From sequence record MK234886: a DNA stretch of 64,000 nucleotides, one strand, 5' to 3'. The notes beneath the pieces were generated by a model. It did not search any database. It was given only the letters and a program-made list of their open reading frames with translations, and was not told the origin of the DNA. The stretch comes from Escherichia phage AnYang. A program made the position numbers and the translations under genes. Below are positions 56,520 through 61,562 of this stretch, one piece after another (within the stretch, counting starts at the first letter, position 1; every line of letters begins with the position of its first letter).

Positions 56520-56720
56520 ATGGGTAGTATTTTTTACCAAATCTGGAAATTGGCCGAAAAGAAAGACAAGAAAATGATGTTAGGTTTTCTTGCGCTAGAC
56601 GTATTCCTTTGGAATCTTCTGGTAGTTCCTGTAGCCGCTAGCCAAGGTATAATTTTACCAGCGGTTACAATGGAACACGTGTTAAGCATAATTGGATTCT
56701 TTACCGGAATCCACGCTTAA
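56520..56720 (+). CDS. small hydrophobic protein (66 aa) on the plus strand
   Basis: Strong SD AGGAGGATAACATG; predicted membrane helices; the only plus-strand ORF with an SD in a minus-strand block. Confidence 0.35.
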   Translation: MGSIFYQIWKLAEKKDKKMMLGFLALDVFLWNLLVVPVAASQGIILPAVTMEHVLSIIGFFTGIHA

Positions 56721-57745
56721 ATTTTGGAATATTTTGAAAGTCTCATTTTTGCCATTAGACCTTGGGCGATATTTGCTTTCATATATGCCAGTACATCATT
56801 TATATCGGCTTTATCTTTCATAACCATATCATTTATATCTTTAGAAGGCCATGGAGCCTTGTCCCAGAATAGAACCCTTTCGCCAGCATCAACTAATCGT
56901 TGCATACGCTTAATTGTGTCAGGATGGCGGGGTTCATTGTCCATTACCCAGGCACGAGTTTCTTTACACGGAACCATAGCCAAGTCCAACGACCCACCAG
57001 TAATTGCTATTGCATTAGGTACGAATAATGAATCAATAGGACCTTCCATTACCCACACCAACTGACGTTCGTCAACTGTATCCATTCCATATATTTTTGT
57101 AGCTTGGTCATGAGCTTTTATTGTAATATATTTTTGTGGAGCATCTTTACGTAAGGCTCGACCCTGAAAACTTTCAATTTGTTTATTCTTATTGAAAATT
57201 GGAATAACCAAACGAGGTTCAGGCATTTCTTTAGAATAGGTCCCTGGATTCACAGAGTTAACTAATGCAGGCCATTCTTTAGTAAACCATAGCCGATTCC
57301 ATTTGTTTTCAGGAATGCAACGTAGTGTTACGTATTTGATGATAGGATGGTCCTTTGGCATCCTATCTAATCGTTCACAGAAATTAAGCTTTTCGATGAC
57401 AGGCATCTTAGCTTTAATTTTTTCAGATATCTCCACCTTAGGTGCAGCTTGTCTCCCGAACGATTGCTCTTTATGTTTCTCAAGAATATATTCACGATAT
57501 AAATCAGGCTCGTATTCGTATAGATACTTCTTAATTCCTGCTGAATAGTCACAGTTAAAACAGTGCAGCATTACGGAGCCGTCATTAGCAGGATAGGCCC
57601 AAAAACGAGCTTTGTTCTCATCTTTTAGGGAGTCACCGCATACACGACAACGACAGTTTAATTTAAAATCACTACCAGTTACTTGTCTGAATTTAGGTTG
57701 GTAATTCAAGGCACGTACAGCAAATTCTCTATCGACATATGACAT
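56717..57745 (-). CDS. 61: gp61 DNA primase
   Basis: 342 aa; N-terminal zinc ribbon CRCRVCGDS...CFNC; size identical to T4 gp61. Confidence 0.9.
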   Translation of the reverse strand: MSYVDREFAVRALNYQPKFRQVTGSDFKLNCRCRVCGDSLKDENKARFWAYPANDGSVMLHCFNCDYSAGIKKYLYEYEPDLYREYILEKHKEQSFGRQAAPKVEISEKIKAKMPVIEKLNFCERLDRMPKDHPIIKYVTLRCIPENKWNRLWFTKEWPALVNSVNPGTYSKEMPEPRLVIPIFNKNKQIESFQGRALRKDAPQKYITIKAHDQATKIYGMDTVDERQLVWVMEGPIDSLFVPNAIAITGGSLDLAMVPCKETRAWVMDNEPRHPDTIKRMQRLVDAGERVLFWDKAPWPSKDINDMVMKDKADINDVLAYMKANIAQGLMAKMRLSKYSKI

Positions 57746-57783
57746 TATTTTTCCTTGGGCTCTAAATTAATAGAGCCATTATA

Positions 57784-57945
57784 TCATTCGTTTTCGGATT
57801 TTTCTTTACGCTTTTTAGATGGGATTTGTTCAGGCCCTTTGTTGACGACCGCGCCTGAGGTAGTTCCGGAGGCAATAGCAGTAGGATTACCACCTGCATC
57901 ACCTGCGACCATATCTTCGTTCATAACTTCTTTAAAAGATTTCAT
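57784..57945 (-). CDS. small hydrophilic protein (53 aa), not in ORF track
   Basis: Manual translation MKSFKEVMNEDMVAGDAGGNPTAIASGTTSGAVVNKGPEQIPSKKRKEKSENE; SD AGGAG; TATAAATA late-promoter motif just upstream. Confidence 0.3.
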   Translation of the reverse strand: MKSFKEVMNEDMVAGDAGGNPTAIASGTTSGAVVNKGPEQIPSKKRKEKSENE

Positions 57946-57958
57946 AGGCTCCTGGCCT

Positions 57959-57966
57959 TATTTATA
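57959..57966 (-). promoter_or_regulatory. candidate T4 late promoter
   Basis: TATAAATA on the minus strand 14 nt upstream of the 53-aa ORF 57784..57945. Confidence 0.4.
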
Positions 57967-58153
57967 TTACGAAAATAGCTTTATCACCATTTGCATCAGT
58001 GACTTCATAGGTATCTTCGTTGTAAAGTGGAATAATCCAAGTCACACCATCACCAGCAATAATATGGATAGCTTCTTGGTCTTTTGATACGATTTCATAT
58101 TCTTCGAATAATTCGAATACAGAAATCTTAGAGCCCGTACACATTGCACTCAT
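57962..58153 (-). CDS. hypothetical protein (63 aa)
   Basis: ORF track. Confidence 0.35.
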   Translation of the reverse strand: MSAMCTGSKISVFELFEEYEIVSKDQEAIHIIAGDGVTWIIPLYNEDTYEVTDANGDKAIFVI

Positions 58154-58349
58154 ATTGTTCCCTTCTTTTAATCAGTTGACGATGAGCCTTTTTAAGTTTG
58201 CGAAGCTGACGTTTAGTTGGCCGCGCAACATAAGCTTGAGTAGTTACTCGTCCAAAAACACCGTACTTAGGTGAAGGAGAATCGATAAAGACTTCCCACT
58301 GACAAGAGTAACTATACACTGCTTTAGAGAATTGAGTTAAGACAAACAT
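58128..58349 (-). CDS. small basic protein, paralog of 59137..59376
   Basis: Shared C-terminal PTKRQ[IL]R basic motif with the 79-aa ORF. Confidence 0.4.
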   Translation of the reverse strand: MFVLTQFSKAVYSYSCQWEVFIDSPSPKYGVFGRVTTQAYVARPTKRQLRKLKKAHRQLIKRREQYECNVYGL

Positions 58350-58350
58350 A

Positions 58351-58791
58351 TTAACCTCGATTCATAAAGGCATTAAAAATCTGGTCATCGATTGAATAAA
58401 CCGGGGCCTCCAGAATTTTCAACAGACTATTTTTGATGTACTTGCTAGGGATATCCATATTAACGCCGTCATTCAATTCGTTGTCCGGGAGGATGTCTTT
58501 AAATTCAAATCCATCAAACTCAACCTTGTCGGGAATACCTTCAGCGAAAAAATAAACCAATTGGTGCATTGCATTGCACGAAAATAATTTAGACCTCACC
58601 GCAATAAGTTCTTGCCAATGGTTTAATTCTCTGTTAAGAAGTTTATGAGCCATTGTAATTCTATCATCACTATCAACAAGAAAATAACCTAGGTATTGGT
58701 GGTCGTCGCTCCAATACATCCGGTATGCTTGTGCATTTGGATTTTTACAACGAAGTTTTTTGATAACTAAATTTCTGTTAATCTTATTCAC
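58351..58791 (-). CDS. hypothetical protein (146 aa)
   Basis: ORF track. Confidence 0.45.
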   Translation of the reverse strand: MNKINRNLVIKKLRCKNPNAQAYRMYWSDDHQYLGYFLVDSDDRITMAHKLLNRELNHWQELIAVRSKLFSCNAMHQLVYFFAEGIPDKVEFDGFEFKDILPDNELNDGVNMDIPSKYIKNSLLKILEAPVYSIDDQIFNAFMNRG

Positions 58792-59077
58792 CTGTCACCT
58801 CTTTAACGATATTTTTGTTATCGAAATTGGCATCGCAATACAAAACATAGTTATATTGCATAACACCACCTGAAGCTAATTGGTCTGACACTTCTTTAGC
58901 CATATTAGGGCGGTCGCGTTTAGTGATGTTCATGATATCGGCATAAATCTGGTGTTCAACCGATTCTTGGTCTGCAGTCATAGACCATTCACAAAGGTCT
59001 TTATCCAATCCAGCCGTAACTGGAGCCGTACCACATGATGCTACTGTAAGGATTGCTGCGATTAATAACTTTTTCAT
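58784..59077 (-). CDS. putative secreted lipoprotein; start moved to ATG 59077
   Basis: MKKLLIAAILTVASCG signal peptide with lipobox; promoter 59106..59135. Confidence 0.45.
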   Translation of the reverse strand: MKKLLIAAILTVASCGTAPVTAGLDKDLCEWSMTADQESVEHQIYADIMNITKRDRPNMAKEVSDQLASGGVMQYNYVLYCDANFDNKNIVKEVTGE

Positions 59078-59105
59078 TTTTAACTCCTCGTTAGTTGATA
59101 GGTCT

Positions 59106-59135
59106 ATAGTATCACTACCATAGACCGTTGTAAAC
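59106..59135 (-). promoter_or_regulatory. T4-type early promoter with stem-loop
   Basis: -35 GTTTAC (59130..59135), 18-nt spacer, -10 TACTAT (59106..59111); inverted repeat GGTCTAT/ATAGACC. Confidence 0.6.
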
Positions 59136-59136
59136 A

Positions 59137-59376
59137 CTATTTCAGCGAATCTTCCAAATAAATTTTACGGAATTTACGTTTTGTCTGACGAATCTGACGC
59201 TTAGTAGGCTTCACAGGAAAATCGAAGAACTCTACGTATTCTTGTTCATAATCGTTGTGACCGACTGAAAGAACCAGTTCCCAGTTGCTTACAGTACGTT
59301 GGATAAACATATTATGCTTACCAAAGGATTTATTCCAAAAAGAACTAGGAGTTGGTTTCATTAATACAATATTCAT
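59137..59376 (-). CDS. small basic protein, paralog of 58128..58349
   Basis: C-terminal VKPTKRQIRQTKRKFRK. Confidence 0.4.
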   Translation of the reverse strand: MNIVLMKPTPSSFWNKSFGKHNMFIQRTVSNWELVLSVGHNDYEQEYVEFFDFPVKPTKRQIRQTKRKFRKIYLEDSLK

Positions 59377-59517
59377 TTATTCCTCGCCTTCATGTTTATG
59401 GGCAATTTCTTCGAATTCGCTGTCACAGTCTAAACAGGTTGCGTTATCCCAAGCATCAAATACCGCTTGGTCTTCGCAGACCGAACAACCACATACTACA
59501 CATTCAAATTCTTCCAT
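59377..59517 (-). CDS. Cys-rich acidic peptide (46 aa), not in ORF track
   Basis: Manual translation MEEFECVVCGCSVCEDQAVFDAWDNATCLDCDSEFEEIAHKHEGEE; start abuts the dmd stop. Confidence 0.35.
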   Translation of the reverse strand: MEEFECVVCGCSVCEDQAVFDAWDNATCLDCDSEFEEIAHKHEGEE

Positions 59518-59721
59518 TTAGATTTCCTCAATGCGGGCATCATATTCAAAAACTTTATTGTCATCAACAAAGGCTTTCACCAGCGCATTATTCACTTCTG
59601 CATACTGCACTGTAACCCATTCAATCATATTTTGGTCACTAACATCCAGAACGGTTTCTTTGGTAAACATATTACCATTTTCAAACCAACCAATAAACAC
59701 TACTTTCTCTAATTTAGGCAT
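59518..59721 (-). CDS. dmd: Dmd-like antitoxin (inhibitor of RnlA/LsoA toxins)
   Basis: KVVFIGWFENGNMFTKE...QYAEVNNALVKAF.DD matches my recollection of T4 Dmd; about 67 aa. Confidence 0.7.
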   Translation of the reverse strand: MPKLEKVVFIGWFENGNMFTKETVLDVSDQNMIEWVTVQYAEVNNALVKAFVDDNKVFEYDARIEEI

Positions 59722-60039
59722 TTAGATTTCCTCACAGAAAGCCCATTCGGCATGATAAACCGTAGCGCCTTTAGTATCATTTAAACAAACCACATCTACC
59801 GGAGCAATTACACGATAAAGACGGGGTTCTCCTCCCACTGAACGAGCTGCACGTCCAGCATAAATCTTAGCCAAACCGATATCTTCAGTAAAGAACACAC
59901 GATTTAGGTTTTTCTTACGACCGGTTTCAGACAAAACTCCTGTTTCCTCAGGAGGACAAAGCATATTACCGATATTAGCAACACTACAACTTCCATGATA
60001 ATACACTTTATATTCTGCTTTACAGTCGATGGTTTTCAT
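59722..60039 (-). CDS. Arr-like minimal ADP-ribosyltransferase candidate (H-Y-[ED] class)
   Basis: YYHGSCSVANIGNML / RVFFTEDIGLAKIYAG / RLYRVIAPVD align by eye with the Arr rifampin ADP-ribosyltransferase core as I recall it; own promoter 60064..60092. Confidence 0.5.
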   Translation of the reverse strand: MKTIDCKAEYKVYYHGSCSVANIGNMLCPPEETGVLSETGRKKNLNRVFFTEDIGLAKIYAGRAARSVGGEPRLYRVIAPVDVVCLNDTKGATVYHAEWAFCEEI

Positions 60040-60063
60040 TTTGTTCTCCAAGTTGATAGGTCT

Positions 60064-60092
60064 ATAGTATCACGCCTACAGGAGATGTAAAC
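60064..60092 (-). promoter_or_regulatory. T4-type early promoter (drives the Arr-like ORF and dmd)
   Basis: -35 GTTTAC (60087..60092), 17-nt spacer, -10 TACTAT (60064..60069). Confidence 0.6.
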
Positions 60093-60099
60093 CCTTAAA

Positions 60100-60122
60100 A
60101 ACAAAAAAGGAGCCGAAGCTCC
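60100..60122 (-). terminator. intrinsic terminator downstream of gene 41
   Basis: GGAGC-TTCG-GCTCC hairpin followed by TTTTTTG. Confidence 0.7.
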
Positions 60123-61562
60123 TTAAAATTTGATAGATGCGGCTAAATCGTCCAAATCACTTCTATTAACACGCGTCTGTCGATTGACCTCGGCTTGACG
60201 ATTCATCTCACCTGTAGCCTCACGAACAGTGTTCACTGGACCTGGATTGGAATCATCTTCAACTTCGTACCAACGTTGATTTCCTTTCTTAACACCAATC
60301 TTAAATTTGTTGTAGTAGCTCTTATCACCATAACGAGATTTAAGCTGCTTAACCATCTGCATACCCATTTGGGCAAACTCTTCTGTCTCGACCACACCTA
60401 ACATGAAGTCTGCAGTATGTGCAATACCAAAGGATTCGGCAATATCAGCCATATCGATTTCGGCTGCAACGTTCGCACCACGAGTAGTCTGGGCTGCAGT
60501 CCACAACAATAATTTCTTTTCTACTGCAAGTCCACGTAGTTCTTCGGCTACCATCTTAATCAATCCGTAACTGTTTTCAGAGAAAACTTTCGTACGAGAC
60601 GATGCACAGATGGCCAAGTAGTCGACGATAACGACCTGTGGGACAAAGTTTTGTTTGAGCTTATATTCGTTTAATAATGCACGGAATGTATCGGCATTAG
60701 CACCACCAGTAGGGTACTGTTTAATCTTTAAACGTCCTAAGGTAGCAGTCGAACGCCATTTATCCATCTTAGCTTTATATTCAGGCCATGATACGTGACC
60801 ATCATCGATATCATCCAGTGACACATCCAGAAGGTTGGCATCGATACGCTTAGCACATACTTCCTCTGCCATCTCCATGGAGATATAAAGAACATCGTAA
60901 CCAGATTGAAGGTAATCAGCAGCCAATGAACACAGACCAAGAGACTTACCTACGTTTGTTCCTGCCAACAATACGTTTTCAGTACCAAACTCGGCACCAC
61001 CTTTAGTAATCTTATTCAGAATATTAAGACGGAACGGAACCTTACGTGCTTTATCGGAATAACTTTTGAATCGTTCTTCATAGTCATCCATCCAGTCATG
61101 ACCTAATTCAGAATCGAAACAAATCGATAATGCATCACGCATGATATCTGGAATAGCGCCAATACCTGGAAGTTTTCTATTTTGTTGCTCAACCGGAAGG
61201 TCTGCATTAGTTTGGATTTCAATGATTTTTGAAGTTGCATTATACATCGCTGCTTTCTGAACGTATTTCTCCGTCTCTTTAACCAACCATTCTTGGTCTT
61301 CAGGTCCAGCATTCAGTGAGCTTAAAAGCTCTTTAGCTCCTTGATGTTCGACTTCTGAAAGCGTGCTGTTATCTAATGCAATGCTCAATGCGTTCTTAGA
61401 AGGCACTGCATTATATTCATTGACGTGTTTTTTAATTTCTTTGAAAAGGGTCTTTGCAGGACCCTGGTCAAAATAAGAATCATTCATATAAGGCCAGACC
61501 TTAGTGAAATAATCACTATTGCCTAGCAGTTGAGCCAAAATAGTTTCTACCACTTCCACCAC
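60123..61562 (-). CDS. 41: gp41 replicative DNA helicase (DnaB-like)
   Basis: 479 aa; RecA-like helicase motifs (GTNVGKS Walker A); size and synteny with 61 and uvsX. Confidence 0.9.
   Translation of the reverse strand: MVEVVETILAQLLGNSDYFTKVWPYMNDSYFDQGPAKTLFKEIKKHVNEYNAVPSKNALSIALDNSTLSEVEHQGAKELLSSLNAGPEDQEWLVKETEKYVQKAAMYNATSKIIEIQTNADLPVEQQNRKLPGIGAIPDIMRDALSICFDSELGHDWMDDYEERFKSYSDKARKVPFRLNILNKITKGGAEFGTENVLLAGTNVGKSLGLCSLAADYLQSGYDVLYISMEMAEEVCAKRIDANLLDVSLDDIDDGHVSWPEYKAKMDKWRSTATLGRLKIKQYPTGGANADTFRALLNEYKLKQNFVPQVVIVDYLAICASSRTKVFSENSYGLIKMVAEELRGLAVEKKLLLWTAAQTTRGANVAAEIDMADIAESFGIAHTADFMLGVVETEEFAQMGMQMVKQLKSRYGDKSYYNKFKIGVKKGNQRWYEVEDDSNPGPVNTVREATGEMNRQAEVNRQTRVNRSDLDDLAASIKF

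Follow-up and report, generated by a model that had tools for sequence, protein, structure and literature searches.

A cluster of small genes in the genome of Escherichia phage AnYang (sequence record MK234886, of which a window of 64,000 nucleotides (nt) was analysed) is, with a probability that we put at roughly 0.8, the Dhakavirus form of an accessory island found in T-even phages between the primosome genes 41 and 61, as judged from its identity and organisation. Two small basic proteins encoded in it are, according to profile matches and alignment, members of the TifA (ToxN inhibitory factor A) family that have kept the Pro-Thr-capped basic helix. The 4.9 kb around the studied genes show 97.5% identity with Escherichia phage C6 (Dhakavirus, a JS98-like T-even phage) and 94–96% identity with IME08, JS98 and other Dhakavirus T-even phages, and 71 records in the phage collection span at least 80% of the same 4.9 kb. 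The island is bounded upstream by gene 41 (helicase) and downstream by gene 61 (primase) with every gene on the minus strand (Table 1), and in T4 the interval between these two genes holds dmd, 61.4, sp, 61.2 and 61.1; this interval has been described as a possible "anti-TA island" (TA, toxin-antitoxin; Srikant et al. 2022, PMC9391042). An earlier first-pass annotation of the window had ascribed anti-toxin and superinfection-exclusion functions to the T4 61.x-dmd region, which is supported by family matches, annotated relatives and the literature, with Dmd and TifA representing the former function and Spackle the latter. All the open reading frames (ORFs) that it named are present on the minus strand in the ORF list, but two genes within its own coordinates, encoding proteins of 146 and 63 amino acids (aa), had been missed, and the small genes, said there to lie upstream of the Dmd-like antitoxin, are located downstream of dmd when the direction of transcription is considered.

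The genes of the island would be organised in two operons. The first would run from an early promoter, P1, through the genes for an Arr-like protein, Dmd, a 46-aa zinc-ribbon peptide and TifA copy 1, and the second from a promoter P2 through the genes for Spackle, a 146-aa protein (p146) in the slot of AdfA, TifA copy 2 and a 63-aa protein, reading on into 61.1 and 61, with a late-promoter motif placed after the 63-aa gene and ahead of 61.1 and gene 61. A Shine-Dalgarno sequence was found at every start and most of the genes are joined stop-to-start or overlap. A point against this arrangement is that the promoters are consensus matches, and matches of that kind number 19 in the region compared to 15.3 expected, which is no enrichment. 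Scanning positions 57600..60200 with Rfam gave no match above the gathering score, and NCBIfam contained no named family for any of the nine proteins.

Both basic proteins match Pfam DUF7279 (curated cutoff 24.5 bits), a model that gives 72.7 bits with TifA from T4 and 72.1 bits with that from RB69. In a pairwise BLASTP comparison of the two, the only match was the PTKRQ[IL]R stretch (8/20 identical, E=1e-4), but since both proteins match DUF7279 far above its threshold their kinship is not a product of chance. When aligned with T4 TifA the residues P53, T54, K55, R56, Q and R59 are invariant in all three proteins. The common motif, pointed out already in the first-pass annotation, is accordingly real by both BLASTP and alignment, and the guess made there that the two paralogs might be TifA-like RNA-binding anti-toxin factors was right at the family level, because PTKRQ[IL]R is the experimentally defined helix cap, found unchanged in T4 TifA and in both proteins, and because these share DUF7279 with the TifA proteins of T4 and RB69. 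Copy 1 is located inside the early dmd operon and its product is about 46.6–51% identical to T4 TifA (61.4) and 97.5% identical to JS98 gp61.4 (tifA_JS98); copy 2 belongs to the second operon, where it takes the place that the TifA gene has in Pectobacterium phage PM2, and its product is 29–35% identical to T4 TifA and shares 72 of 73 residues with tifA_vB_EcoM_005. Both JS98 and Escherichia phage vB_EcoM_005 harbour the two tifA genes, and the GenBank record of VR7 contains two genes annotated as similar to T4 gp61.4. The main text of PMC10853763 makes no mention of paralogs or of two tifA copies per genome, literature searches returned nothing on two tifA copies in one genome, and no TifA structure was found in the PDB; the fold expected for the family would be L-shaped, with a three-stranded sheet at the N-terminus, a loop of some 20 residues and a helix at the C-terminus.

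Gene 61.4 of T4 was renamed tifA after T4 had been seen to escape from toxIN through amplification of dmd-tifA (PMC9391042). TifA binds RNA via a C-terminal basic helix with the cap Pro53-Thr54, both RNA binding and ToxN neutralisation are lost in the variants P53A/T54A and K55A/R56A/R59A, and the protein probably acts by trapping ToxN on abundant RNA (Guegler et al. 2024, PMC10853763). Each of the copies in the window would likewise bind RNA through the basic helix while its divergent N-terminal sheet and loop would trap a specific host RNase toxin on that RNA, a mechanism to which we give an even chance, and most likely the two copies together widen the range of toxins that can be neutralised.

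Judged by their divergence and positions the two copies are old lineages and not a fresh duplication. They are 21% identical over the alignment, and in the TifA tree copy 1 is found together with VR7-041c and the TifAs of T4 and RB69 while copy 2 is found with those of Kanagawavirus, PM2 and EcS1, each copy being less close to its partner in the window than to TifAs from other genera. A survey of positions revealed only the first in T4 and RB69, only the second in PM2 and Kanagawavirus, where the sole TifA gene comes directly after the gene that follows Spackle, and both in VR7. The ratio of non-synonymous to synonymous substitution rates (dN/dS) against JS98 is 0.03 for copy 1 and 0.05 for copy 2, indicating purifying and not diversifying selection at such depth. 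The first-pass annotation had taken the duplication as a sign of ongoing selection, and a recent local duplication under diversifying selection would fit the presence of two family members inside 1.3 kb, the ability of T4 to amplify dmd-tifA through recombination between short repeats, and the exact 23-nt direct repeat flanking the first operon; measured against the divergence, the conserved positions and the dN/dS values it is very improbable, and it was rejected on the identities, the tree and the synteny. Regarding function, there are results that weigh against an anti-toxin role. Table S2 of PMC10853763 includes tifA_JS98, approximately copy 1, and tifA_vB_EcoM_005, which is copy 2 with one substitution, both chosen to represent different phylogenetic clusters, and neither neutralised any of seven type III toxins, namely the ToxN of E. 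coli, five more ToxN homologs and TenpN. The TifAs of the window phage are known here from sequence alone, and because near-identical proteins rescued none of the toxins tried, an anti-toxin role of both copies is suggested by family membership and location only. The same failure, together with the similar affinity of TifA_RB69 for unrelated RNAs, single-stranded DNA and double-stranded DNA (PMC10853763), agrees with the idea that both proteins bind RNA in general, for instance to protect mRNA or as chaperones, instead of inhibiting a specific toxin. We consider this unlikely since the founding members act by specific ToxN contacts, with ToxN escape mutants mapping to the predicted interface, since a basic helix that stays the same combined with a loop that differs from clade to clade is what one would expect if targets are recognised specifically, and since both genes are located inside an island of counter-defence genes.

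Alternative readings also concern the identity of p146 and the reality of the shortest ORFs. AdfA (61.2) is anti-DarT factor A, which acts by binding DarT, and p146 could be a diverged single-repeat AdfA that would neutralise a DarT-type ADP-ribosyltransferase toxin in the same way, as it occupies the same slot after sp, ends in the same tail and contains a hairpin motif, Y-x-G-x-h-h-V-x-D-x-x-I, that recurs in every slot protein. When p146 was compared with AdfA by hhalign the full-length profiles gave E=2.9e-11 and 97% probability over 105 columns in the C-terminal half of AdfA, but after trimming of the tail this fell to E=0.03 and a probability of 1.7% with a different part of AdfA aligned, and a hidden Markov model (HMM) of the body only gave 4–7 bits. 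BLASTP against T4 AdfA aligned the tail only (14/14 C-terminal residues identical), and on the Pfam AdfA model (PF23813), where T4 AdfA scores 454.9 bits, p146 reached 16.3 bits, under the 27-bit cutoff, with residues 133–146 only. Thus neither Pfam AdfA nor the trimmed profile comparison gave a full-length match, and AdfA membership of p146 is not established because the profile signal vanishes once the tail is removed. The AlphaFold2 (AF2) model of p146 has a predicted local distance difference test (pLDDT) score of 71.5, below 50 in the tail; a fold search with it in BFVD returned its own family only, which also speaks against AdfA, and in the PDB weak matches to an acetate-kinase subdomain (E=3.8e-3, template modelling (TM) score 0.33) that are uninformative for function. 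Kinship with AdfA is therefore doubtful, and the body of p146 appears to be either unrelated to AdfA or very diverged from it. For the 46-aa and 53-aa ORFs the alternative is that they are chance frames that are never translated, a view that can draw on the absence of the 46-aa ORF from the annotations of the JS98 and IME08 RefSeq records and on translation being deduced here from the nucleotide sequence alone. Both ORFs have, however, been retained in different genera, with dN/dS of 0.08–0.20 at saturated synonymous divergence, both have a proper Shine-Dalgarno sequence and stop-start coupling, and both have dedicated PHROG families, making chance frames hardly credible; the dN/dS values point to purifying selection on every small ORF.

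Table 1. Features of the gene 41–gene 61 island in the window, listed in the direction of transcription
Feature	Positions	Strand	Basis and remarks
gene 41, replicative helicase, upstream island boundary	60123..61562	-	gp41 annotation in C6, JS98 and T4; 68% DNA identity to T4 gene 41
Intrinsic terminator-like hairpin with T-run, directly after gene 41	60107..60124	-	AAGGAGCTTCGGCTCCTT then TTTTTGTTTTT
Predicted early promoter P1, T4 type	60064..60091	-	consensus match GTTTACA-16-TACTAT, TG upstream; would serve arr-like, dmd, cys46 and tifA1
Arr-like protein, 105 aa, putative ADP-ribosyltransferase fold, adjoins dmd	59722..60039	-	RB69 ORF040c family; phrog_2110, 1.7e-60
dmd, 67 aa, antitoxin against RnlA/LsoA	59518..59721	-	Pfam Dmd (PF17587) 5.2e-22, 78.4 bits; PDB 5I8J 5e-22, 5HY3_B 3e-18
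cys46, 46-aa acidic zinc-ribbon-like peptide	59377..59517	-	CxxC-18-CxxC, EE tail; phrog_13952, 4.6e-31
tifA copy 1 (tifA1), 79 aa, dmd-proximal, T4/61.4 type	59137..59376	-	Pfam DUF7279 2e-19, 69.6 bits; isoelectric point (pI) 9.8
Predicted early promoter P2, T4 type	59106..59134	-	consensus match GTTTACA-17-TACTAT, TG; would serve sp, p146, tifA2 and p63, on into 61.1 and 61
sp, Spackle, 97 aa, inhibits the gp5 tail lysozyme in the periplasm, superinfection exclusion	58784..59077	-	Pfam T4_Spackle (PF25676) 1e-42, 145 bits; PDB 6X6O 3.3e-41
p146, 146 aa, GTG start, slot of AdfA (61.2) in T4 and RB69	58351..58791	-	phrog_8539
50-nt junction: SIDDQIFNAFMNRG tail, stop codon, Shine-Dalgarno sequence and start of the next gene	58347..58396	-	90% identical to T4; flanks 66–70%
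tifA copy 2 (tifA2), 73 aa, PM2/Kanagawavirus type, right after AdfA-slot gene	58128..58349	-	Pfam DUF7279 4.4e-19, 68.6 bits; pI 10.1
p63, 63-aa acidic protein, 26-nt overlap with the end of tifA2	57962..58153	-	RB69 ORF033c family; phrog_3249, 1.2e-32
T4 late-promoter consensus TATAAATA, upstream of 61.1	57959..57966	-	14 nt before the 61.1 Shine-Dalgarno sequence
61.1, 53 aa, conserved	57784..57945	-	phrog_1823, 2.5e-31
gene 61, primase, downstream island boundary	56717..57745	-	ORF list; annotated relatives (C6, JS98); T4 DNA comparison

The tail of p146 belongs to a wider pattern. The proteins found in the slot after Spackle, including those of PM2, Kanagawavirus and VR7, have dissimilar bodies and a common C-terminal motif, [ILV]DDQIFN[AYF][FW]M[NKE][RK](G), which was seen at 58347..58396 in the window and at L003:3693-3742, L006:3128-3508, L007:2985-3341, L008:2976-3356 and L009:1605-2403 in related loci. 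VR7 has two tail-bearing slot genes in tandem, and in Shigella phage Shf125875 (Mosigvirus; L005:3749-4318) an AdfA homolog has no conserved C-terminal tail, apparently as the result of a frameshift. Such a tail might serve as a docking module common to these proteins, or mark a recombination junction that includes the Shine-Dalgarno sequence of the gene that follows. As a tentative and wider proposal, Dhakavirus and Gaprivervirus may keep two anciently diverged TifAs that would each trap a different host RNase toxin outside the tested ToxN and TenpN, the 46-aa, 63-aa and 146-aa proteins may be new counter-defence factors, and the tail [ILV]DDQIFN[AYF][FW]M.. may serve as the docking module on differing bodies.

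The 46-aa peptide contains 6 Cys and 15 Asp and Glu residues and has a pI of 4.1, in line with its description in the first-pass annotation as acidic and Cys-rich. It was found in 68 phage records (Dhaka-, Mosig-, Kanagawa- and Mosugukvirus), always within the same island, and its dN/dS is 0.08–0.11 with synonymous sites saturated. In the wider family conservation is limited to the cysteines C6, C9, C28 and C31, which give CxxC-18-CxxC ahead of an acidic tail and resemble the pattern of a small zinc ribbon; searches in Pfam and NCBIfam gave only sub-threshold hints of rubredoxin-like proteins or DUF7129. When 1.84 billion representatives were searched exhaustively with a profile, 7 hits were obtained, of which 4 are genuine 46-aa members and 2 are repeat artefacts, the last being the 803-aa P0163, and no larger protein with the 46-aa module was found in that search, P0163 itself not having been inspected. 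Enterobacter phage Q7622 (L006:2501-2778) has two differing Cys-rich peptides with acidic tails, 45 and 47 aa, in tandem where the window has one, and in Shf125875 (L005:2501-3080) the Cys-rich peptide gene comes straight after dmd with no dmd-proximal tifA.

At the other end of the island, the family of the 63-aa protein is represented in 263 phage records, with dN/dS of 0.18 against RB69. The 53-aa ORF, which the first-pass annotation had placed behind a late-promoter motif, was identified as gp61.1, and the motif TATAAATA is indeed present, reading from 57966 to 57959. Compared with T4 gp61.1 the best BLASTP stretch is identical in 33 of 42 residues (E=3e-24), the identity over all 53 aligned codons is 71.7%, and dN/dS is 0.15–0.20. 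Literature searches gave no characterised function for 61.1 or for the RB69 ORF033c family. TATAAATA is not enriched in the window (7 found compared to 7.1 expected), and because its frequency equals chance only its positional conservation counts. The position is conserved in C6, JS98, Q7622 and Kosakonia phage 305 (Dhakavirus, Kanagawavirus), has one mismatch in PM2 and RB69, and is absent in T4; TATAAATA is a plausible candidate for a late promoter of 61.1.

The product of dmd would bind and block the RNase toxins RnlA and LsoA as its orthologues do. Its neighbour, the Arr-like protein, is unusually conserved, with homologues of 65–89% identity across T4-like phages of Escherichia, Serratia, Pantoea, Erwinia, Proteus and Acinetobacter, and the gene is absent from T4. 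The Pfam Arr-ms match is below the 25-bit cutoff (E=0.029, 15 bits), NCBIfam rifampin_ARR gives E=0.07, and a sequence-profile search of the PDB gave no match. In its AF2 model (pLDDT 84.9) the best PDB fold neighbours are Arr-2, PltA and ParT, none of them significant (E of at least 0.3, TM about 0.5), and literature searches revealed no characterised function for the RB69 ORF040c family. When analysing the gene borders it was noted that the junctions between the Arr-like gene and dmd (59715..59735) and between dmd and cys46 (59511..59531) contain the same 15 nt on the minus strand, GAGGAAATCTAAATG, and that the C-terminus of Dmd, ...EEI, is that of the Arr-like protein. In PM2 and Kanagawavirus the Arr-like gene is immediately followed by the Cys-rich gene, while in Dhakavirus and Mosigvirus dmd lies between them with GAGGAAATCTAAATG on both sides; it looks as if dmd had been inserted as a cassette at this microhomology.

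The 97-aa protein, proposed in the first-pass annotation to be a lipoprotein with a signal peptide, has the N-terminal signal peptide but by homology is not a lipoprotein. It aligns residue for residue with T4 Spackle, including Cys29, Cys81 and the 22-aa signal peptide. N-terminal sequencing of T4 Spackle identified the first 22 residues as a cleaved signal peptide, leaving a mature protein of 75 residues that is soluble and periplasmic and that binds and inhibits the lysozyme domain of gp5 within the periplasm. A lipobox-like VASC is present at residues 12–15 of the window protein, inside the signal peptide, and its T4 equivalent LASC is evidently unused; the lipoprotein reading was rejected on the Spackle matches in Pfam and the PDB together with the cleavage data for the T4 orthologue. 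As inferred from its orthologues, the protein would be exported to the periplasm and there inhibit the gp5 lysozyme of superinfecting phages.

The two predicted early promoters share an exact 23-nt direct repeat, at 59093..59115 and 60051..60073, 958 nt apart, which is prolonged by a 22-nt stretch of 77% identity and in both promoters takes in the -10 region and the 5' leader. The copies bracket the arr-like–dmd–cys46–tifA1 operon, and in T4 the amplification of dmd-tifA is mediated by short flanking repeats of this kind (PMC9391042). Outside the island, a plus-strand ORF of 66 aa with hydrophobic segments (56520..56720), annotated in C6, shares a few bases with the 3' end of gene 61 and is located at the position of T4 dam.1 and RB69 ORF029w. 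In vB_EcoM_005 (L010:3007-3788) a putative intron-like homing endonuclease gene is found between 61.1 and a fragmented primase annotation, and the window has no such insertion.

The island forms a compact catalogue of phage counter-defence genes, most of those studied now carrying their correct names, and the two well-conserved TifA lineages together with the tiny cross-genus proteins (the 46-aa and 63-aa proteins, 61.1 and the tail-bearing slot proteins) make up a useful list of candidates. Since the mechanism and critical residues of the TifA family are already defined, all of these are ready candidates for screens against E. coli toxin-antitoxin and other defence systems. It does not reveal a new type of system, and earlier publications cover the locus, with Dmd, TifA, Spackle and the AdfA slot named and near-identical forms of both TifA copies cloned and assayed.

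When compared with the known systems, Spackle shows no notable difference from its T4 counterpart (gp61.3; PDB 6X6O, 7CN6), being 70% identical with the same length, the same position and an early promoter of its own, and P1 and P2 are built like the T4 promoters that precede dmd and sp. Dmd resembles T4 Dmd (gp61.5; PDB 5HY3) in its Pfam Dmd match, its 62% identity and its place in an early operon with tifA, but T4 Dmd ends with ...VDCRG and window Dmd with ...ARIEEI, matching the junction GAGGAAATCTAAATG that also closes the Arr-like gene, and the window, unlike T4, has a 46-aa gene between dmd and tifA. Both TifA copies resemble T4 TifA (gp61.4) in near-equal DUF7279 scores, size class, the Pro-Thr-capped helix with K55/R56/R59 and the early-gene context; copy 1 also matches it in position, directly in the dmd operon, whereas copy 2 follows the AdfA-slot gene, an arrangement also seen in PM2 and Kanagawavirus. 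Two tifA genes per genome are found in the window phage, VR7 and vB_EcoM_005, compared to one in T4, T2, T6 and RB69. The AdfA proteins of T4 and RB69 (gp61.2) have the slot, the last 14 residues and the stop/Shine-Dalgarno/start junction in common with p146, but the bodies show no significant similarity, the lengths are 208 and 146 aa, and the next gene is 61.1 in the former and tifA2 in the latter. The islands of PM2 and Kanagawavirus have the common order Arr-like, Cys-rich peptide, Spackle-like, tail-bearing slot protein, TifA, 61.1 and 61 and, unlike the window, lack dmd and a dmd-proximal tifA. Because they contain only the tifA position of copy 2 and no dmd, the Dhakavirus island is a combination of the T4 layout and that of PM2 and Kanagawavirus.

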